Shown here piece by piece: positions 1 to 11,470 of a stretch of DNA of 64,000 nucleotides. This DNA is from a bacterium (GTDB lineage: Bacteria > Pseudomonadota > Gammaproteobacteria > UBA9339). The notes below the pieces were generated by a model. The model did not search any database. It was given only the letters and a program-made list of their open reading frames with translations, and was not told the origin of the DNA. The position numbers were made by a program, and so were the translations under genes. The stretch spans positions 9,484 to 73,483 of the forward strand of contig JBAXAM010000003.1 in NCBI GenBank assembly GCA_037142515.1, in the 5' to 3' direction. Within the stretch, counting starts at the first letter, position 1. Every line of letters starts with the position of its first letter.

Positions 1-186
1 GCAACTGTAGAAGATATTGTACTAATGCGTAAGATTGTCGGTGAGAATATGCACGTTAAAGCTTCTGGTGGAATTCGTACCAAAGAAGACGCAGAAAAAA
101 TGGTAAATGCTGGAGCAGACAGAATTGGCGCCTCAGCAAGTGTGGCAATTGTAACTGGCAAGCAAGCAAAAGCTGGTAACTATTAA
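1..186 (+). CDS. deoC: deoxyribose-phosphate aldolase, C-terminal fragment (5' end lies outside the window)
   Basis: Frame 1 reads [51 protein letters not shown]...NY and ends at TAA 184-186. KASGGIR followed by GAxRIGxS is the C-terminal pattern I associate with DeoC/LacD-family aldolases. Confidence 0.8.
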
Positions 187-211
187 TTATAATATAATAT
201 GGGATAAACAT

Positions 212-856
212 ATGTTCGAATTACGCACCTTGACCTTTATAGATAATTTGCAACCCCAGCTTGCTCATTTTATTCCAGAAGAGCATATGGTTTATGCTCC
301 TTCTGAAAATGATGCAATGCTAATTATAGAAATAGCCCCAGCGATGGAAATTCATTCGATGGTTGATTTAGCGTTAAAGAGAACTAAAGTGCAGCTCGGT
401 GCGTTAATAACAGAAAGATATTTTGGTCAGTTATTTATACAACATTCTGATCAGGGTGAAGTAATCGAAGCTGGGCGAGAAATTTTGCGTATCACCGGCC
501 TTGATGAAAAGAATCGCGCCAAAATTGAAGTTCTTACCAACAAAATTATTCGTAGCGTTGAGCCAGATCACGCAAAATATTTCAATATCGATGCAGTGAA
601 CAATAAAGTAATACCAGGCGAATCAGTTTTGCTTATAGAGACAACTCCAGCAGCATATTCTGCTATTGCTTGTAATGAAGCATTGAAGGCCGCAAATGTA
701 AAGCTAATAACAATCAGGCCGTTTGGAGCTACAAGTAGATTAGTTATGAGCGGGCCAGAATCAGAAATTGATTCAGCAGCTGAAGCAGCTATCAAGATAA
801 TCGATAAGCTTAATGAGATGCGAGCAAATAAAACCCATAAACAATTAGGCGTATAG
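212..856 (+). CDS. tandem BMC-domain protein (bacterial microcompartment shell, BMC-T-like)
   Basis: This 214-aa ORF has two internal copies of the BMC pattern. Residues ~35-95 read MLIIEIAPAMEIHSMVDLALKRTKVQLGALI...GEVIEAG. Residues ~137-200 read SVLLIETTPAAYSAIACNEALKAANVKLITIRPFGATSRLVMSGPESEIDSAAEAA. Compare PduA [52 protein letters not shown]. Confidence 0.7.
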   Translation: MFELRTLTFIDNLQPQLAHFIPEEHMVYAPSENDAMLIIEIAPAMEIHSMVDLALKRTKVQLGALITERYFGQLFIQHSDQGEVIEAGREILRITGLDEKNRAKIEVLTNKIIRSVEPDHAKYFNIDAVNNKVIPGESVLLIETTPAAYSAIACNEALKAANVKLITIRPFGATSRLVMSGPESEIDSAAEAAIKIIDKLNEMRANKTHKQLGV

Positions 857-859
857 TGC

Positions 860-1564
860 ATGGGCAATCGACGTTCATTCATAGTAAATGAAATCGTAAA
901 ATACAGCCAAAAACTAGATCAAAAAGGTTTTGGCGCTAATCACGACGGCAATATTTCTGTTAAACTCGATGATGTGTTGCTGGCAACACCAACTGCTGTT
1001 AGTAAGGGTAATATAACAGCTGATCTAGTCATAACTTTAGATAAAAATGGCAATAAAATAGCGGGTTTCGGCAAGCCCTTTTCTGAAATTAAACTACACT
1101 TAATTGCCTATCGTGAGCGCCCCGAAGTTAATGCGGTTGTTCACGCGCACCCACCGTTTGCTACTGCGCGTGGTTTATTGAATTTACCAATTAAACCGGC
1201 AATTCCTGAAGCAATTGTTTCAATTGGTGATATTGTTCCAGTTGTTGCATTTGCTATGCCTGGCGCAAAAGAAAACGATGGTATTATTGCAAAGGCTTTA
1301 GCTGAAGTTGATGTTTTTATTATGCCAGGAAATGGAGTGTTTGCAGTTGGCGATAGCGTAGAGCAAGCTTATTTGCGTTTAGAGCTAGTAGAACATCTGG
1401 CTAAAATCGATTATTATGCGCAGGGTCGTGGGATGCCAATGAAACTTGCGGACGAAGATGTTTCTAGTCTTATGAAAAAGCGCTCTGATATTGGCCTTGG
1501 GCCGAAAAAAAATGTGTCAGAACTTAAAAGAATAATTTTAGAAGAAATTAAAAAAGTACTATAA
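860..1564 (+). CDS. class II aldolase/adducin-family protein (FucA/RhaD-like)
   Basis: This 234-aa ORF contains NHDGNISVK, KPFSEIKLHLIAY, NAVVHAHPPFATA and IMPGNGVFAVGDSVEQAYLRLELVE. These match the metal-binding His and substrate motifs of class II (fuculose/ribulose-phosphate type) aldolases. Confidence 0.8.
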   Translation: MGNRRSFIVNEIVKYSQKLDQKGFGANHDGNISVKLDDVLLATPTAVSKGNITADLVITLDKNGNKIAGFGKPFSEIKLHLIAYRERPEVNAVVHAHPPFATARGLLNLPIKPAIPEAIVSIGDIVPVVAFAMPGAKENDGIIAKALAEVDVFIMPGNGVFAVGDSVEQAYLRLELVEHLAKIDYYAQGRGMPMKLADEDVSSLMKKRSDIGLGPKKNVSELKRIILEEIKKVL

Positions 1565-1594
1565 ACAAAGTATTATAAAGTGAGGATAAAGTTT

Positions 1595-2356
1595 ATGAGA
1601 ACACCGCTTATTGCTGGCAATTGGAAAATGAATAAAGCTATTGGTGAAGCGCTTGATCTTGCAAAAGCACTGCATCATGGCTTATCACACGCTGATGCAG
1701 CCAAGCTTGAGGTTGTTGTTGCGCCGCCATATACTGCGCTTAACAAGATAGCAGAATTTTTAAAAGATTCTTTTATTGGTGTTAGCGCTCAAGATTTATT
1801 TTGGGAGGATGCTGGGGCTTTTACGGGAGCAATTTCTGCTCCAATGATCAAAGATGCTGGAGCTGAATACGTAATTATTGGTCATTCAGAGAGACGTCAA
1901 TTGTTTGGTGAAACTGACAGCACCGTAAACAAAAAAGTAAAAGCGGCGCTCAAAGTTGGTTTAATTCCAATTTTTTGTGTTGGTGAGACTCTGGCAGAGC
2001 GTGAAGCAGGAAAAGTAAACGCTGTTATTGGAACCCAATTTTCTGGTGGGCTTGCCGATTTAACCACAGAAGATATGAAGCAAGTAGTGATTGCTTACGA
2101 ACCAGTATGGGCAATTGGTACCGGTAAAACTGCAACGCCAGGGCAAGCCGAAGAAGTTCATGCTATGATTCGTAAAATGCTCGTTGAAAAGTTTGGCCAG
2201 GCAATTGCCGATATAGTAAGGCTTTTATATGGCGGTAGCGTCAAGCCTTCAAATAGCAAAGAATTGCTGTCTGAGCCTAATATCGATGGAGCATTAGTCG
2301 GCGGTGCTAGTCTAAAAGCAGAAGACTTTATTGGTATTATAAAAAACGCGATTTAA
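1595..2356 (+). CDS. tpiA: triosephosphate isomerase
   Basis: Motifs present are MRTPLIAGNWKMN, IIGHSERR, AYEPVWAIGTG and LYGGSVKP. I chose ATG 1595, with GAGGA 7 nt upstream, over the GTG 1580 used in the ORF track. Confidence 0.95.
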   Translation: MRTPLIAGNWKMNKAIGEALDLAKALHHGLSHADAAKLEVVVAPPYTALNKIAEFLKDSFIGVSAQDLFWEDAGAFTGAISAPMIKDAGAEYVIIGHSERRQLFGETDSTVNKKVKAALKVGLIPIFCVGETLAEREAGKVNAVIGTQFSGGLADLTTEDMKQVVIAYEPVWAIGTGKTATPGQAEEVHAMIRKMLVEKFGQAIADIVRLLYGGSVKPSNSKELLSEPNIDGALVGGASLKAEDFIGIIKNAI

Positions 2357-2440: not shown

Positions 2441-2523
2441 GGAGGGGTTCCCGAGCGGCCAAAGGGATCAGACTGTAAATCTGCCGGCTTATGCCTTCGT
2501 AGGTTCAAATCCTACCCCCTCCA
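2441..2523 (+). tRNA. tRNA-Tyr (anticodon GTA)
   Basis: GGAGGGGTTCCCGAGCGGCCAAAGGGA...CTGTAAA...GGTTCAAATCCTACCCCCTCCA is near-identical in layout to E. coli tRNA-Tyr. It has a 7-bp acceptor stem (ggagggg/cccctcc) and a long variable arm. No CCA is encoded. Confidence 0.95.
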
Positions 2524-2549
2524 AAAGATTGATTTTTGGTGTTTTTTAT

Positions 2550-2623
2550 GCGGGCGTAGTTCAATGGTAGAACTTCAGCCTTCCAAGCTGATAGCGTGGG
2601 TTCGATTCCCATCGCCCGCTCCA
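2550..2623 (+). tRNA. tRNA-Gly (anticodon TCC)
   Basis: Acceptor stem gcgggcg/cgcccgc, anticodon loop cTTCCaa, T-loop GGTTCGATTCC and an encoded CCA. Confidence 0.95.
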
Positions 2624-2647
2624 GTTTCGAAGGCTTAGAAAGTATTC

Positions 2648-2723
<76 letters not shown>

Positions 2724-4064: not shown

Positions 4065-4451
4065 ATGGAAATAATAAATAATACTCATAATGTTCCGTGC
4101 CCCAAACTAGATAAGTTTTTGTGGGCGCTGATACTAGCGTTAGTTGCAGCAGGTGCTTTTGCTAATTATTATTTTAGCGAACTGGCTTGGGCTTTGCGTT
4201 TTACAGGTTGGATTATTTTAATTTGCGTTTTGATTGGGTTGGCAGCTGCGACGTTGCAGGGTAAAAGAACTTGGGATTTTGCTAAGAATGCCCGAATAGA
4301 GTTGCTCAAGGTTGTGTGGCCAACGCGTGAGGAGACTGCGAAAATCACAATGGTAGTTGCAGCTCTGGTGCTTGTTGCATCAATAATTCTTTGGGGTATT
4401 GATTCTGTTTTACTTCGGATTGTTGCTTGGCTAACGGGAACATTAACTTAA
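4065..4451 (+). CDS. secE: preprotein translocase subunit SecE
   Basis: This 128-aa ORF has three hydrophobic segments and ends ...[42 protein letters not shown], the conserved SecE C-terminal region. It sits upstream of nusG. Confidence 0.93.
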
Positions 4452-4461
4452 GAACCTTTTT

Positions 4462-5031
4462 ATGAATACTGAACCTCAAAAATTAGATGAGACAAAACCA
4501 AACATCAAATGGTATATCGTCCATGCTTATTCTGGTAAAGAATTGGCGGTAGTGCGTAATATTAGCGAGAGAATCAAATTGCACGACGTTGGAGATAAAT
4601 TTGGTGAAATTATTGTTCCGACTGAAGAAGTTGTGGAGATGCGTGGTGGACAAAAATGTAAAAGTACGCGTAAATTTTTTCCTGGTTATGTTTTAGTTCA
4701 AATGGAAATGAATGACCAAACTTGGCATTTGGTTAGAAACACACCATGGGTTATGGGATTTATTGGTGGGACGAGTGATAAGCCGGTTCCTGTTGATAAT
4801 AAAGAAATTAATGATATTTTACATCGAGTACAGGAAGGGGTCGAGAAGCCGCGGCCAAAAATTTTATTTGCACCTGGTGAAGTTGTGCGTATTATTAGCG
4901 GTCCATTTTCAGACTTCGATGGTGTGGTTGAAGAAGTTAACTATGAAAAGAGTAGGCTCGTTGTTTCAGTATTAATTTTTGGACGATCAACGCCAGTAGA
5001 ATTAGAGTTTGGACAAGTACAAAAGTCTTAA
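4462..5031 (+). CDS. nusG: transcription termination/antitermination factor NusG
   Basis: Motifs [20 protein letters not shown] and the KOW region [21 protein letters not shown]. The secE-nusG-rplK synteny is conserved. Confidence 0.96.
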
Positions 5032-5076
5032 TATTTTTTTGGGGAGCTCGATGAGCGCTAAGACCCAGGAGGTAAT

Positions 5077-5520
5077 ATGGCAGTAAAAAAAGCAGCAAAA
5101 CTAATTAAGTTGCAAGTAAAAGCCGGTGAAGCAAATCCGGCTCCACCAGTTGGTCCGGCATTAGGACAACATGGCATAAACATAATGGAGTTTTGTAAGG
5201 CGTTTAATGCACAAACGCAGAAAATGGAAAAAGGATTGCCTATACCCGTTATTATTAGTGTTTATGCTGATCGTAGCTTTTCCTTTATTCTAAAAACTCC
5301 TCCGGCTTCAATATTATTATTGAAAGCTGCTGGGTTGAGTAAAGGTAGTGCTACGCCGCATAGTCTAAAAATCGGTAAAGTTAATTTAGCTCAAGTAGAA
5401 GAGATTGCTAAAATTAAAACATCAGACCTCACTGCTGCAGACTTAAAAGCAGCGATGCGCACTATTATTGGTAGTGCCAGGAGCATGGGAATTATTGTGG
5501 AGGGCTCTGAGAATGTCTAA
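5077..5520 (+). CDS. rplK: 50S ribosomal protein L11
   Basis: [33 protein letters not shown] is the L11 signature. AGGAGG lies upstream of the ATG. Confidence 0.97.
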
Positions 5521-6202
5521 AATTACTAAGCGTCGTAAAATTATTAATGAGAAGGTTGTTATAGGGAGGCAATATTTAGTGGATGAGGCGTTAGAATTGC
5601 TTAAGTCTTTGCCACCACTAAAATTTGCTGAAGGTGTTGATGTCAGTATTAATTTAGGTATTGATACTAAGAAATCTGATCAGACTGTACGTGGTGCAAC
5701 TGTATTACCACATGGTACTGGGCGCAAAGTTAGAGTTGGAGTATTCGCTCAAGGTGAATATGCTGAAATTGCAAAAACAGCTGGAGCTGATGTCATTGGG
5801 TTCGAAGATTTAGCAGAAAAAATTAAACAAGGCGTTATTGATTTTGATGTGTTAATTGCAACACCGGATGCAATGCGTGTTGTTGGCCAGTTGGGCCAAA
5901 TTTTGGGTCCGCGTGGTTTGATGCCGAATCCAAAAATAGGTACGGTAACTGCAGATGTTGCTGGCGCCATTAAAAATGCAAAAGGTGGGCAAGTAAGTTA
6001 TCGTGCTGATAAAGGTGGTGTTGTGCATTGCACTATCGGAAAGGTGAATTTTGCTGTCAATGCTTTGAAAGAGAATTTAGTTACCTTGCTCAATGATTTG
6101 AAAAAGACCAAGCCAAGCGGTTCTAAGGGTATTTATATTAAAAAGATAGTGTTATCAAGCACTATGGGTCCTGGTCTGATTATTGATCAAGCTAGTATTT
6201 AA
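5513..6202 (+). CDS. rplA: 50S ribosomal protein L1
   Basis: MSKITKRRK... with [18 protein letters not shown] and [12 protein letters not shown] 5513 overlaps the end of rplK. The longer ORF-track start at 5468 lies inside rplK and was rejected. Confidence 0.96.
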
Positions 6203-6335
6203 TGATTTCACGGCTGAAGTTGTAGCTGTTGGAGACCGTAGGTCACACAGGTGTGTTAATTGAGAGTTCTCAACCTACGTAAACGGTGCCGTGTGTTGTA
6301 GCGGCATTAATTTGTGTTTATCCGGAGGTGTATCA
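6203..6335 (+). promoter_or_regulatory. rplJ 5' leader (candidate L10/L12 autoregulatory leader)
   Basis: This is a 133-nt untranslated spacer between rplA and rplJ, the position of the L10 leader in gammaproteobacteria. It contains a 7-bp stem, cgtaggt (6237-6243) with acctacg (6274-6280), that encloses a smaller hairpin. I did not run a covariance-model check. Confidence 0.4.
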
Positions 6336-6860
6336 GTGGCTCTGAGACTAGAAGATAAAAAAGCTATTGTAGCTGAAGTGGCGGATGTTGCTGCGAAAGC
6401 AGTATCTGCTATCGCTGCTGATTATCGCGGTTTAACTGTGACGGAAATGACCGATTTGCGAGCGAAAGCACGTAAAAATGGCGTTTATTTGCGAGTGGTG
6501 CGTAATACTTTGGCGAGAAGGGCTCTAGAAAATACTGATTTTGCTTGTATGCAAGACTCACTTGTAGGTTCTGTATTTTTAGCTTTTTCGCAAGAAGATC
6601 CGGGAGCTGTAGCTCGTTTATTGAAAGATGCAATGCGCGACTATGAAAAGCTTACGGTTTGTGCTTTGGCTTTAGGTAGAAAACTACTGAGTGTAGGAGA
6701 TGTTGACGCCGTAGCCAAGTTGCCAACTCGTGATCAATCATTGGCGGTTTTAATGTTAGTGATGCAAGCGCCAGTTACCAAATTGGTACGAACTATGGTG
6801 GAACCATATGCCATGTTGGTACGTACAGTTGCAGCAATACGCGATAAGAAAGCTGCATAA
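6336..6860 (+). CDS. rplJ: 50S ribosomal protein L10
   Basis: A GTG start at 6336, with GGAGG at 6324-6328, gives (M)ALRLEDKKAIVAEV...YLRVVRNTLARRA, collinear with E. coli L10 MALNLQDKQAIVAEV. Confidence 0.95.
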   Translation: MALRLEDKKAIVAEVADVAAKAVSAIAADYRGLTVTEMTDLRAKARKNGVYLRVVRNTLARRALENTDFACMQDSLVGSVFLAFSQEDPGAVARLLKDAMRDYEKLTVCALALGRKLLSVGDVDAVAKLPTRDQSLAVLMLVMQAPVTKLVRTMVEPYAMLVRTVAAIRDKKAA

Positions 6861-6896
6861 ATTTTAATGTTAATAAATTTTTTGAGGAGAAATTAA

Positions 6897-7268
6897 ATGA
6901 CCGTTACTAAAGATCAGATTTTAGAAGCAGTTGCAAAAATGAGTATTATGGATGTTGTCGAGCTTGTTAAAGAGATGGAAGAAAAGTTTGGTGTTTCTGC
7001 TGCTGCTGCAGTTGCTGTTGCAGCTGCGCCAGCTGCTGCCGCAGCTGCTGAAGAAAAAACATCTTTTAATGTTGTTATGACTAACTTTGGTGCAAATAAA
7101 ATAAACGTAATTAAAGTTCTTCGTGAGATCACAGGCTTGGGTCTTAAAGAAGCCAAAGATATGGTCGAAGGTGTACCATCAAACGTTAAAGAAGGTATTT
7201 CTAAAGATGATGCAGCCAGTATCAAAAAGAAGCTTGAAGAAGCTGGTGCGACTGTTGAAGTTAAGTAA
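6897..7268 (+). CDS. rplL: 50S ribosomal protein L7/L12
   Basis: An Ala-rich hinge ([20 protein letters not shown]) is followed by [22 protein letters not shown]...[10 protein letters not shown]. Confidence 0.97.
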
Positions 7269-7288
7269 TCGAGTAGTTTATGCGTTCT

Positions 7289-7309
7289 GTGTCTATTAAA
7301 AATAGGCAC
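7289..7309 (+). other. hairpin in the rplL-rpoB spacer (possible attenuator or processing site)
   Basis: An 8-bp stem gtgtctat/ataggcac (one G-U pair) closes a 5-nt loop. It sits where E. coli has a partial terminator/RNase III site. No U-tract follows. Confidence 0.3.
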
Positions 7310-7345
7310 GGGACAGTTTCGTGTTGTTTATTTAGAGGGTAGTTG

Positions 7346-10300
7346 ATGAATCACATTCAGCAAGTCAAAACTCATGGTGGTAATCGAGCGGTATTATCCT
7401 ACACTGAAAAAAAACGCATTCGCAAAAGTTTTGCTAAGCATCCGATTACAGTGGTGCCGCCTAATCTTTTGGCAGTACAGGCAGATTCTTATCGTGATTT
7501 TATCCAGACTGGGGTTTTGCCCGAAGAACTGGCTGATGTTGGGTTGCATGCAGTATTTAAATCCGTTTTTCCGATTGTAAGCTATGCTGGCAATGCACAG
7601 CTTGATTATGTAAATTATAGCCTGGGTGAGGCGATGTTTGATGTTAGAGAATGTCGGACCCGTGGTTTAAACTATGCCGCAGCGCTTCGAATCAAGTTAC
7701 GCCTTACTGTTTATGAAAAAGATTCTGCTGGTAATAAAACTGCAAAAGATATTAAAGAGCAAGAAGTTTATATATGCGATTTGCCTTTAATGACTGATAC
7801 AGGGAGTTTCGTAGTTAATGGTATTGAGCGTGTAGTAGTATCACAGCTACATCGTTCGCCTGGAGTGTTTTTTGAGCATGATAAGGGTAAGACCCATTCT
7901 TCCGGTAAGTTGCTTTTTTCTGCTCGTGTAATTCCATATCGTGGTTCTTGGCTCGATTTCGAGTTTGATCCTAAAGATTGTGTTTTTGTACGAATTGACC
8001 GTCGTCGTAAGTTACCAGTTACTGTTTTATTGCGTTCGCTAGGCTATACGACTGAGCAAATTTTAGACATGTTTTTTGAAGCGGATACCTATCGTTTGGT
8101 TGGTGAAGATATTATTTTAGATTTGAATCCCGAGCGCCTGCGCGGCGAGCTTGCGGTTATAGATATTAAGGGCAAATCTGGGGACATTATTGTTGAACAA
8201 GGTAGACGTATTTCACAGCGTCATGTGTCATTAATGCAAAAAGCTGGTATTAAAACTTTAAGTGTGCCCCTAGAGTATTTGCTCGATAAGGTTATTGCCA
8301 AGCCAGTTATCGACAAAAAAACTGGAGAAGTACTAGCGGCAGCTAACATAGAGGTTACCGCAGAATTAATTAAACAATTTCATAAAGCAGGTATTGGATC
8401 GTTTGAGACGCTCTATGTTAATGATCTAGATCGTGGGCTTTATATTTCCGATACATTACGTATAGACTCCTCATCTACGCAACTAGAAGGATTGGTCGAG
8501 ATTTATCGGATGATGCGGCCAGGTGAGCCGCCGACTAAAGAAGCGGCTGAAACATTATTCCGTAATTTATTTTTTTCGAGTGAGCGCTATGATTTGTCTA
8601 CTGTTGGGCGCATGAAATTCAATCGTCGTTTGGATCGGTCAAGCTTCGAAGGCCCAGGGGTATTGTCCAAAGATGATATTGTCGACGTGATTAAAACATT
8701 GATTAGTATTCGTGATGGTAAAGGTGAGGTTGATGATATTGATCACTTGGGTAATCGTCGCATACGCAGTGTTGGTGAGATGGTAGAAAACCAATTTCGC
8801 ATGGGTTTGGTGCGAGTAGAGCGTGCAGTAAAAGAGCGCTTAGGCTTGGCCGATACTGAAAACTTATTGCCACAAGACTTGCTTAATGCTAAGCCTATTG
8901 CCGCTGCAATTAAGGAATTTTTTGGTTCTGGTCAGCTGTCGCAGTTTATGGACCAAAATAACCCATTGACTTCAATCACGCACAAACGCCGTATTTCGGC
9001 ATTAGGGCCTGGTGGTTTGACCAGAGAACGAGCGGGGTTTGAGGTGCGTGACGTTCACCCGACTCACTATGGTCGTTTGTGTCCAATTGAGACACCTGAA
9101 GGACCGAATATTGGTTTAATTAACTCGCTAGCTATTTATGCGAAGATTAATAAATACGGTTTTATTGAAAGTCCATATCGTAAAGTAGTTGCGGGTAAAA
9201 TAACCGAAGAAATTGTGCATTTGTCGGCAATTGAAGAGGGAAATTTTTATATTGCTCAGGCGAACACTACAATCGACAAGCACGGTAATTTAGTGGATGA
9301 GTTAATTCCATCTCGTTATAAAGGCGAGTCTATTTTAACCACAGCAGAGCATGTAAATTATATTGATGTATCGCCTAGTCAGATTGTTTCAATAGCAACT
9401 GCATTAATTCCATTTTTGGAACATAACGATACTAGTCGTGCGCTTATGGGATCAAACATGCAACGTCAGGCAGTGCCAACTATACATGCGGAGAAACCAT
9501 TAATTGGTACTGGTATGGAATATAGAGTTGCTATTGACTCTGGTGTAACCGTGGTTGCGCGTCGTGGTGGTATAGTTGATTCAGTTGATGCTTCGCGTAT
9601 CGTGGTTCGTGTTAATGAGAGCGAAGCTGTTGGTGGTGAAGAAGCTGCTGTAGATATTTATAATCTTATTAAATATTCCAGGTCTAATCAAAACACCTGT
9701 ATTACTCAACGGCCATTAGTTGAAATTGGTGATCATGTTGCGATTAGTGATGTGCTTGCTGATGGTCCAAGTACCGATCTTGGTGAGTTAGCATTGGGTC
9801 AAAATTTATTGGTCGCATTTATGCCGTGGAATGGTTATAACTTTGAAGACTCAATTGTTATTTCCGAGCGCGTGGTGCAAGAAGAGCGTTTTACTACAGT
9901 GCATATTCAAGAATTAACTTGTGTAGCGCGTGATACCAAAATTGGTCCAGAAGAAATTACTGCCGATATTCCAAATGTTGGTGAAAGTGCATTAGCTAAG
10001 CTAGACGCATGTGGCATAGTGCATATTGGCGCAGAAGTTGTGGCTGGTGATATTCTTGTAGGGAAAGTTACTCCTAAGGGAGAGACTCAATTAACACCAG
10101 AAGAAAAATTATTACGTGCTATTTTTGGTGAGAAAGCATCTGATGTTAAAGATACTTCGCTTCGAGTGCCGTCGGGAACCAATGGTACGGTTATTGATGT
10201 TCAAGTGTTTACACGTGATGGTGTTGAAAAAGATGAGCGTGCCAAAGCAGTTGAAAAAGCGAGTTTGATGAAAATTAAAAAAGATTTATCTGATGAGTTA

Positions 10301-11470
10301 CGTATTAAGGAGGATGTAGTTTATCAAAAGATCAGAAATATTTTACTTAAGCAAAAAGCTGAAAGTGGCCCAAAGCGATTGAAAAAGGGAACGATTATTG
10401 ATAGTGAGTATTTAGATAAGCTTCCGCGTGAGCAATGGCTTGAAATTAGTTTAACTAATGGAGCAGCTAATCAGGGATTAGAGGCGGCAGCTAAACAACT
10501 AAAACAGCTATTAAAAGATCATGATAAAAAATTAGACAATGAACGAAAAAAACTTGCACAAGGCGATGATTTGGCGCCTGGAGTGCTCAAGGTTGTTAAG
10601 GTTTATTTAGCAGTCAAACGCCGTATGCAAGTGGGTGATAAAATGGCTGGCCGGCACGGTAATAAGGGTGTTATTTCGATTATTGCTCCAGTCGAGGACA
10701 TGCCATTTCTTGCTGATGGTACGCCGGTTGATATTGTTCTCAATCCGCTTGGAGTGCCATCGCGTATGAACGTTGGTCAGGTCCTAGAGACCCATTTGGG
10801 TTGGGCGGCAAAAGGCCTAGGATTAAAAATTGCTAAGATGCTAGATGAGCATTGCAAGATGGCCGAACTGCGAGAGTTTTTGCAAAGAGTTTATGATGTG
10901 GGCCAGGGTGAAAAAATTGACTTAGAAAAACTTACGAACGACGAAATTAAAGTATTAGCTAATAATCTGCGTGATGGTGTCCCAATTAATACTCCAGTAT
11001 TTGATGGCGCGACTGAAAATGAAGTGCGAGAAATGCTGCGTTTGGCTGAATTGCCAGAGTCAGGGCAGACGTGGTTGTTTGATGGTTGCTCCGGTAAGAA
11101 ATTTGATCGTCCAGTTACGGTTGGCTATATGTATATTCTTAAATTAAATCACTTAGTTGACGATAAGATGCATGCGCGCTCGACTGGATCATATAGTTTA
11201 GTGACACAACAGCCTCTTGGAGGCAAAGCTCAATTCGGTGGTCAACGTTTTGGTGAAATGGAAGTGTGGGCGCTTGAAGCTTATGGTGCAGCTTATACGC
11301 TACAAGAAATGTTGACTGTTAAGTCTGATGACGTTGTTGGCCGTACAAAAGTTTATAAGAATATTGTTGATGGTGATCATAGTATGGATGCTGGGATGCC
11401 AGAGTCATTTAATGTTTTGGTTAAAGAAATAAGATCGCTTGGTATAGATATAGAACTTGAGGGGGAATAG
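7346..11470 (+). CDS. rpoB: DNA-directed RNA polymerase subunit beta
   Basis: About 1374 aa, with [22 protein letters not shown] and PSRMNVGQ motifs. The ORF track uses TTG 7343, but the adjacent ATG 7346 is equally possible. Confidence 0.98.

Follow-up and report, generated by a model that had tools for sequence, protein, structure and literature searches.

Bacterial microcompartments (BMCs) of the sugar-phosphate-utilisation (SPU) class had been catalogued at more than 280 loci by 2021 (Sutter et al. 2021, PMC8217296), and in 2024 the deoxyribose-5-phosphate aldolase (DERA) of such loci was assayed and their subtype SPU5 curated (Dwyer, Sutter & Kerfeld 2024, PMC11585597). The catalogue (PMC8217296, Supplementary Data 2) describes SPU5 as a subtype with no pfam02502, an aldehyde dehydrogenase (AldDH) carrying an N-terminal encapsulation peptide (EP), a pfam00596 aldolase with a C-terminal EP, a triplet of BMC-P genes, a single BMC-H, a PduS-associated BMC-Ts with a cysteine pore and, in half of the loci, a CsoS1D-like BMC-Tdp; there are no satellite loci, and the hosts are Proteobacteria, including unclassified (groundwater) Gammaproteobacteria. 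Here we investigated a 64,000-nucleotide stretch of a gammaproteobacterial genome (henceforth the window; contig JBAXAM010000003.1, referred to as C3), the first 2,356 nucleotides of which hold the end of a microcompartment gene cluster. An earlier reading of the sequence alone (the original prediction) had proposed an SPU-type metabolosome locus, calling that class poorly studied; the composition of the cluster does match SPU, subtype SPU5, and the wording no longer suits a class with this many catalogued loci and an assayed DERA. We consider it highly probable that the cluster encodes an SPU5-type metabolosome together with feeder enzymes, with the deoxyribose of DNA as its most likely substrate.

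In the assembly (genome label G000), which measures 1.48 Mb in 74 contigs and is 100% complete, the window occupies C3:9484-73483. A six-frame listing of window positions 1-2356 gave four open reading frames (ORFs) on the same strand: 1-186 (a fragment open at its 5' end), 212-856, 860-1564 and 1580-2356. These are the last four genes of a 13-gene single-strand cluster, C3:2895-11839, in the order cdd, punA, BMC-H, BMC-P, AldDH, PduS, PduT-like BMC-T, BMC-P, BMC-P, DeoC, BMC-Tdp, aldolase and tpiA, with intergenic gaps of 3-36 nt. The rest of the locus, which had been predicted to lie upstream of the window, is complete on the same contig and strand: C3:4197-8742 carries one BMC-H, three BMC-P, a PduT-like BMC-T, an acylating AldDH and a PduS homologue. 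No internal stop interrupts any of the 11 shell and core genes, all of which are intact. A genome-wide profile search placed every PF00936 and PF03319 match within C3:4221-10297 and none elsewhere (PF00936: three domains upstream plus the BMC-Tdp; PF03319: three genes). No terminator-like sites were found between the cluster genes, cdd is preceded at a distance of 50 nt by an extended -10 promoter-like site, and the cluster is probably transcribed as an operon. Its main features are the following:

Window 1 to 186, plus strand: 3' end of deoC (last 61 codons and stop), encoding DERA (TIGR00126).
Window 212 to 856, plus strand: BMC-Tdp, a tandem permuted BMC-domain shell protein of 214 aa (PF00936, CcmP model, PDB matches, AlphaFold2 model).
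Window 410 to 418, plus strand: codons for Thr67-Glu68-Arg69 of the BMC-Tdp, aligned with the VVER segment of HO-5816 (translation checked).
Window 860 to 1564, plus strand: class II aldolase/adducin-family protein of 234 aa (PF00596, 127 bits).
Window 1517 to 1561, plus strand: C-terminal encapsulation peptide of the aldolase, SELKRIILEEIKKVL, a conserved amphipathic helix after a variable linker.
Window 1580 to 2356, plus strand: tpiA, triosephosphate isomerase of 258 aa (PF00121, 330 bits).
5' end of the cluster, plus strand: cdd, cytidine deaminase, directly preceding punA.
5' end of the cluster, plus strand: punA, purine nucleoside phosphorylase.
C3:4839-6236, plus strand: acylating AldDH (PRK15398, 638 bits; cut-off 403).
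Between the AldDH and PduT-like BMC-T genes, plus strand: PduS homologue (domains Complex1_51K, SLBB, Fer4 and RnfC_N).
After the PduS gene, plus strand: PduT-like BMC-T (TIGR02526, 134 bits, below the 250-bit cut-off).

Compared item by item, the locus agrees with the published SPU5 description throughout. It has the general SPU features, i.e., BMC-H, BMC-T and BMC-P genes clustered with an acylating AldDH, and a DERA with an N-terminal extension (which DERAs outside microcompartments lack; PMC11585597), as well as those of the subtype: no RpiB-like protein, no phosphotransacylase (PTAC), no satellites and no second BMC type in the genome. Specifically, PF02502 (RpiB) had no match in this genome or in 22 relatives, control genomes being positive, and PF06130 (PduL) had none in this 100%-complete genome. 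Of the proteins that the original prediction expected upstream, BMC-H, BMC-P and the acylating AldDH are present and PduL is not, an absence that is normal for SPU5. The subtype call was made from the published description, and the position of a same-genus orthologue in the catalogue tree lends it indirect support, as does the ranking of HO and CsoS1D proteins above CcmP by phmmer. That orthologue (ACD_21C00205G0007) is 88% identical to the BMC-Tdp of the window and is labelled Tdp_melon_S1Dlike in the catalogue tree, with the flag 'incomplete, omitted'; the PduT of its locus (Ts_dullTeal) adjoins an SPU5 PduT there. Since all SPU5 items fit, we regard the locus as a further example of a catalogued organelle type. 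It shares with the catalogued SPU5 loci the BMC-H, the BMC-P triplet, the BMC-Ts/PduS pair with its pore cysteine, the BMC-Tdp (probably of the CsoS1D-like clade), the EP-tagged AldDH and aldolase and the extended DeoC, but differs from them in the addition of cdd and punA at the 5' end and of the genome's sole tpiA at the 3' end, and in its host, a Dot/Icm-positive reduced-genome family not noted in the catalogue.

The shell protein encoded by ORF 212-856, in which two BMC repeats had been recognised by eye, matched Pfam PF00936 significantly (42 bits; cut-off 24.5), with the second repeat alone (residues 141-200) being detected. Its residues 3-209 align end to end with the NCBIfam CcmP model (157 bits; equivalog cut-off 340), and phmmer against the PDB aligned residues 3-198, covering both repeats, with HO-5816 (E 2e-47), followed by CsoS1D of H. 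neapolitanus (2e-42) and Prochlorococcus (1e-40), MSM0275 and CcmP (6e-37). Because these alignments span both repeats, we take both to be real. An AlphaFold2 model built on 40 homologues (pLDDT 89.5) shows two beta-alpha-beta repeats and was matched by Foldseek to 7dhq, 5v75, 3f56 and 4ht5 with TM 0.88-0.95 and a root-mean-square deviation of 1.4-1.5 Å, as against TM <0.4 for EutL and PduB. The protein is a BMC-Tdp of the gated double-stacking class of CsoS1D, CcmP and HO-5816, rather than one resembling the PduA/PduT core as had been proposed. Modelled in three copies, it formed a head-to-tail ring (ipSAE 0.89 versus 0.00 for the best control; pLDDT 91), a mark that the calibration set reaches in 20 of 30 homomers of solved structure and in 1 of 23 single chains, with runs agreeing in at least 94% of contacts; as homologous trimers have already been solved, this result shows likeness and not binding. 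ORF 212-856 is predicted to form pseudohexameric trimers, of the kind that the original prediction advised looking for, with a gated central pore.

In the published structures of CsoS1D and CcmP, a Glu-Arg pair gates the central pore, and their stacked trimers are proposed conduits for large phosphorylated metabolites. Thr67-Glu68-Arg69, invariant in 40/40 homologues down to 63% identity, corresponds to that pair and may have the same gating role. CsoS1D (3f56, 7dhq) and CcmP (4ht5, 5lsr) share with ORF 212-856 the tandem permuted fold and the conserved Glu-Arg pore pair, but serve CO2-fixing organelles. A carboxysome reading of the present locus, to which the best NCBIfam match (CcmP) might point, was rejected on account of the score below cut-off and of the AldDH, DERA and PduS/T of the locus; no carboxysome genes accompany it, although no genome-wide search for RuBisCO or carbonic anhydrase was made. 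The closest solved relative is HO-5816, a BMC-T2 of the HO microcompartment shell (PDB 5v74, 5v75, 6mzu; 45% identity, TM ~0.9). In the HO loci of Haliangium ochraceum, too, there are three BMC-P and an aldolase of pfam00596, and the AldDH nearest to theirs is that of SPU5, whereas the HO main locus has no DeoC and its host is a large-genome myxobacterium. Altogether, 783 relatives of ORF 212-856 were found at E<=1e-10, the closest named one being a protein of strain GD-1 (92% identical), annotated 'Bacterial microcompartment protein trimer-2'. Some matches belong to other systems: those of ~40% identity in G040, G039 and G033 lie near paired BMC-P and BMC-H genes in what look like alpha-carboxysome loci with CsoS1D, and G028 has an unrelated metabolosome with two BMC-Tdp and a 548-aa AldDH.

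The three neighbours named in the original prediction, DeoC, a class II aldolase and TpiA, are confirmed by TIGR00126, PF00596 and PF00121. The full deoC gene (C3:8764-9669, 301 aa) starts 719 nt before the window; the protein scores 273 bits against TIGR00126 (cut-off 117), and its residues 82-297 match the DERA of PDB 6d33 (E 5e-72). The catalytic residues of E. coli DERA are D102, K167 and K201. DeoC has D169, K231 and K260 in the motifs EIDMV, FVKTSTGF and VKASGG (the Lys260 codon lies at window 58-60), all invariant or nearly so in 36 homologues and, judged from these motifs, it keeps the DERA catalytic residues. The 80 residues before this core comprise an EP helix (residues 3-22, MTDKIDELVELITKRVTERL), a disordered linker (pLDDT <50) and four cysteines (Cys37/44/47/50). 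Across the family, the open frame of DeoC measures ~300 aa in genomes with shell genes (G016, whose copy is frame-broken, being the exception), whereas genomes lacking them have one of 218-248 aa. As the long frame tracks the shell genes, there is good comparative support for the extension serving the compartment. In G016 (970-1885 of the locus) the DeoC frame is split into pieces of 111 and 177 aa, by a frameshift or an assembly error.

The extension has features of its own (C3:8764-9003). An invariant C37-x6-C44-x2-C47-x2-C50 motif (…SCTNCGLC…) precedes a conserved KKPxAVxNI…GAxRIG segment; a Pfam search with the extension alone gave no match. A profile of the extension gathered 80 cluster representatives, of which 63 have the full C-x4-12-C-x2-C-x2-C pattern, and most of the matches checked by Pfam proved to be DeoC, some of them fused to RpiB or to a flavoprotein. 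Cysteines in the DERA extension go unmentioned in Dwyer 2024 (PMC11585597).

Encapsulation signals, in which a linker of variable sequence connects a conserved amphipathic helix to the enzyme, appear in family alignments at three places: the N-termini of AldDH (MISDKQISSIVDRVVEQL) and DeoC, where the original prediction had advised looking for them, and the C-terminus of the aldolase, whose helix is conserved among 8 orthologues of the family and also in the more distant homologues that were sampled. The EP-to-core linkers of AldDH and aldolase are ~20 residues shorter in G000 than in every relative, as if by small in-frame deletions such as would accord with genome reduction. In the PduT-like protein, the pore residue Cys39 lies in NPVCPGKY and is kept in 8/8 orthologues. 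The final gene, tpiA, is the sole triosephosphate isomerase gene of the genome (a single match genome-wide), so that what had seemed odd within the window, the only visible tpiA lying inside the cluster, holds for the whole genome. Its true start is likely the ATG at 1595 (MRTPLIAGNWKMN), as orthologues in G002, G013 and G006, which also follow the aldolase, begin MRTP.

How these parts may work together can be set out in a scheme adapted from Dwyer et al. 2024 (PMC11585597). Cdd and PunA, encoded directly upstream of the shell genes (gaps of 21 and 36 nt; the adjacency is also found in G001), would deaminate and phosphorolyse deoxynucleosides, and DeoB, encoded on another contig (496 bits), would convert deoxyribose-1-phosphate into deoxyribose-5-phosphate. 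The latter would enter a shell built of one BMC-H, three BMC-P, the PduT-like BMC-T and the BMC-Tdp, in which DERA, anchored inside by its N-terminal helix, would split it into glyceraldehyde-3-phosphate plus acetaldehyde. The latter product is volatile and toxic; trapped in the compartment, it would be turned by the EP-tagged acylating AldDH into acetyl-CoA and NADH. Because no alcohol dehydrogenase is encoded (a genome-wide search for the Fe-type enzyme, PF00465, found none), PduS/PduT is the candidate route of NADH re-oxidation: the PduS flavoprotein would regenerate NAD+, with electrons leaving via an Fe-S cluster that PduT is expected to hold at its Cys39 pore. Similarly, because no PduL is encoded, acetyl-CoA and CoA probably pass through the BMC-Tdp and would cross the shell by the wide Glu-Arg-gated pore of its stacked trimers; SPU subtypes without PTAC typically encode a BMC-Tdp (Dwyer 2024, PMC11585597). 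Cytosolic Pta-AckA (the housekeeping ackA-pta pair lies on C4) would gain ATP from acetyl-CoA, and glyceraldehyde-3-phosphate would leave for glyceraldehyde-3-phosphate dehydrogenase (GAPDH), also encoded, and TpiA. TpiA has no terminal extension and is therefore probably cytosolic. The EP-tagged class II aldolase-like protein would be a second cargo.

A second acetate/butyrate-kinase-like gene (352 bits) lies beside a short PTA_PTB gene (123 bits) at C1:134123-135878 on the minus strand; the pair possibly encodes a kinase for butyrate or propionate and the matching phosphotransacylase.

Several observations weigh against deoxyribose catabolism as set out above. The adjacency of cdd and punA occurs, among the family genomes, only in genus g1. 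deoB is unlinked, and at least two BMC-positive relatives whose genomes are 97% complete or more (G001 and G014) do not have it, so the feeder route is not universal. The Fe-S cluster of PduT, the gating of the BMC-Tdp and the passage of acetyl-CoA are borrowed from other systems. Among the 8 SPU5 loci of the catalogue (PMC8217296), moreover, DeoC is present in 4 and the aldolase in 5; with DeoC in only half of them, the subtype may have a further signature enzyme besides DERA. Finally, the scheme does not account for the aldolase, with its altered metal site.

A different view of the organelle is that the aldolase stands at its centre, or that it has a pair of signature enzymes. PVM organelles have a PF00596-family aldolase as their signature enzyme. 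By analogy, the EP-tagged aldolase would split a ketose-1-phosphate into dihydroxyacetone phosphate (DHAP) and an aldehyde, TpiA would convert the DHAP, and DERA would be one of two aldehyde sources. The catalogue counts speak for this view, as do the EP on the aldolase and its retention in all family loci that reach that far, the two tandem aldolase copies in G002 (strain GD-1) and the position of tpiA directly after the aldolase in four genomes. The active site can be read both ways. In an alignment to FucA of E. coli (1fua/1dzw; numbering by manual count on 1dzw), the protein keeps Glu73, His92 and His94 as Glu76, His95 and His97, and these, together with the phosphate-site motifs (GN, TPT, FSE), are invariant; yet the FucA zinc ligand His155 is replaced by Asn158 (window 1331-1333) and the catalytic Tyr113 by Glu117 (window 1208-1210), likewise in 120/120 best homologues down to 56% identity, so that FucA-type chemistry is not assured. 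All NCBIfam aldolase equivalogs score far below cut-off (e.g., TIGR01086 fucA, 81 versus 400), the locus has no linked gene for a sugar kinase or isomerase, and a genome-wide search found no isomerase of the IF-2B/MtnA type for a 5-deoxyribose or methylthioribose route; a DHAP-shunt role of that kind is accordingly not supported. We find an organelle of either kind unlikely.

With one zinc ligand replaced, the protein is not a plain FucA: the original prediction was right about a class II aldolase and wrong in so far as it called it FucA-like. The PF00596 fold, the three FucA residue equivalents and the phosphate-binding motifs are common to FucA (1fua), PVM-type BMC aldolases and the window protein, which differs from FucA in its Asn and Glu replacements and its C-terminal EP. 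It belongs to a clade tied to microcompartment loci of the SPU5/HO type, and we found no description of the His155-to-Asn and Tyr113-to-Glu replacements in the microcompartment literature examined. Dwyer 2024 (PMC11585597) suggested that the aldolase makes fructose-1,6-bisphosphate; for the window protein such a role is unsupported, neither its family nor its site, as read from the alignment, backing it. The aldolase may instead use a different metal and substrate, or act as a scaffold in the way proposed for the SPU ribose-5-phosphate isomerase (RPI).

In the latter case, the aldolase-like protein would be non-catalytic and would pack the core of the organelle, standing in for the RpiB-like protein that other SPU subtypes have and that is catalytically weak. 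Its altered metal site (Asn158) and C-terminal EP, together with the absence of RpiB from SPU5, would suit such a role, and the RPI of SPU6 was reported to be nearly inactive, complexed with DERA and possibly involved in packaging (Dwyer et al. 2024, PMC11585597). However, Asn31, Thr43/Thr45 and Ser75 are invariant across the 120 homologues along with Glu76, His95, His97 and Glu117, a pattern that resembles purifying selection on an active site and not on a scaffold surface, and makes a non-catalytic scaffold quite improbable.

The tandem paralogues of strain GD-1 (L010:10649-12196) are both EP-tagged, measure 252 and 257 aa, are 84% and 78% identical to the window copy and lie before tpiA; in the same strain, a PLP-enzyme gene and an amino-acid permease gene are inserted between punA and BMC-H. 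In G006 (locus 4307-10916), ~4.7 kb separate DeoC from the BMC-Tdp and 1.2 kb separate the BMC-Tdp from the aldolase.

What is unusual about the locus is its host, a small-genome, Dot/Icm-carrying freshwater lineage. The original prediction suspected a Legionellales-type bacterium, and a DotB equivalog scoring above cut-off in this genome (614 bits; cut-off 463) and in 19/22 genomes of its GTDB family suggests such a host. Genomes of the family measure 0.4 to 2.0 Mb, and matching DNA was found in freshwater and lake metagenomes of several studies; no RNA data set turned up among the sequencing runs that contain it. The searchable literature yielded no link of microcompartments with Legionellales or Coxiellaceae, and neither name occurs in the catalogue supplements (Sutter 2021, PMC8217296). 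The BMC-P triplet is present in 10/22 family genomes and 8/13 genera, and nine other shell-bearing genomes have the same gene order as far as their contigs reach. In a DotB tree, carriers of the locus are scattered, requiring at least 4 changes. A tree built from PduT, two BMC-P and DeoC again shows the groupings (G000, G002) with G001, (G004, G008) and (G010, G014), and because of this recurrence we favour ancestry with repeated loss over repeated transfer; as the DotB tree is that of a single marker gene and leaves several forks unresolved, the match between it and the shell-gene tree is no more than suggestive.

Another reading takes the present locus for a decaying relic in a shrinking genome, without a working organelle. 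The genome is only 1.48 Mb, the AldDH and aldolase linkers are some 20 residues shorter than in relatives, 12/22 family genomes have no locus, and DeoC is apparently split in G016. By contrast, 11/11 shell and core genes are intact and free of internal stops, catalytic, pore and EP residues are conserved, and genera at 60-70% identity still share the gene order and content. We therefore regard decay as extremely improbable.

Downstream, the cluster ends at an unrelated block, the first features of which are:

Window 2441 to 2723, plus strand: tRNA-Tyr, tRNA-Gly and tRNA-Thr (ARAGORN).

These tRNA genes have their own promoter-like TTGACA-17-AAAAAT (C3:11869-11897) and are followed by tuf at 2773, opening a tRNA-tuf-secE-nusG-rplK block that forms the 3' boundary of the microcompartment cluster; in strain GD-1, opposite-strand genes come after tpiA instead. 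On the other side, just upstream of cdd, C3:2188-2733 holds a gene with an ORF6N/Rha-type phage regulatory domain, adjoining opposite-strand genes for DNA alkylation repair and a 4'-phosphopantetheinyl transferase.

Taken by itself, the locus adds one example to a catalogued organelle type, and what is new about it is modest: its host lineage, the genome's only tpiA at the end of the cluster and the Asn site of the aldolase. That Asn invariably replaces His in the SPU5/HO-type aldolase speaks against the simple synthesis of fructose-1,6-bisphosphate that has been suggested, and marks this protein as one of specific biochemical interest. The linkage of cdd and punA, in a genome that also has deoB, pta-ackA and GAPDH, lends independent genomic support to the hypothesis that the sugar of DNA is the substrate. 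Given that about half of the family keeps an 11-gene set that is costly for genomes of 1-2 Mb, these bacteria, presumed associates of protists, probably count deoxyribose or a related sugar phosphate among their significant foods. We tentatively propose, as a possible though doubtful extension, that the SPU5 metabolosome is ancestral and has been kept vertically in a freshwater, putatively Coxiella-related Dot/Icm lineage of 1-2 Mb genomes that lives on deoxynucleosides from the digestive vacuole or cytoplasm of its host, with the aldolase, in which Asn stands for a zinc-binding His, carrying out a reaction not yet described for its family. If true, professional intracellular bacteria would here be linked with a catabolic microcompartment for the first time.

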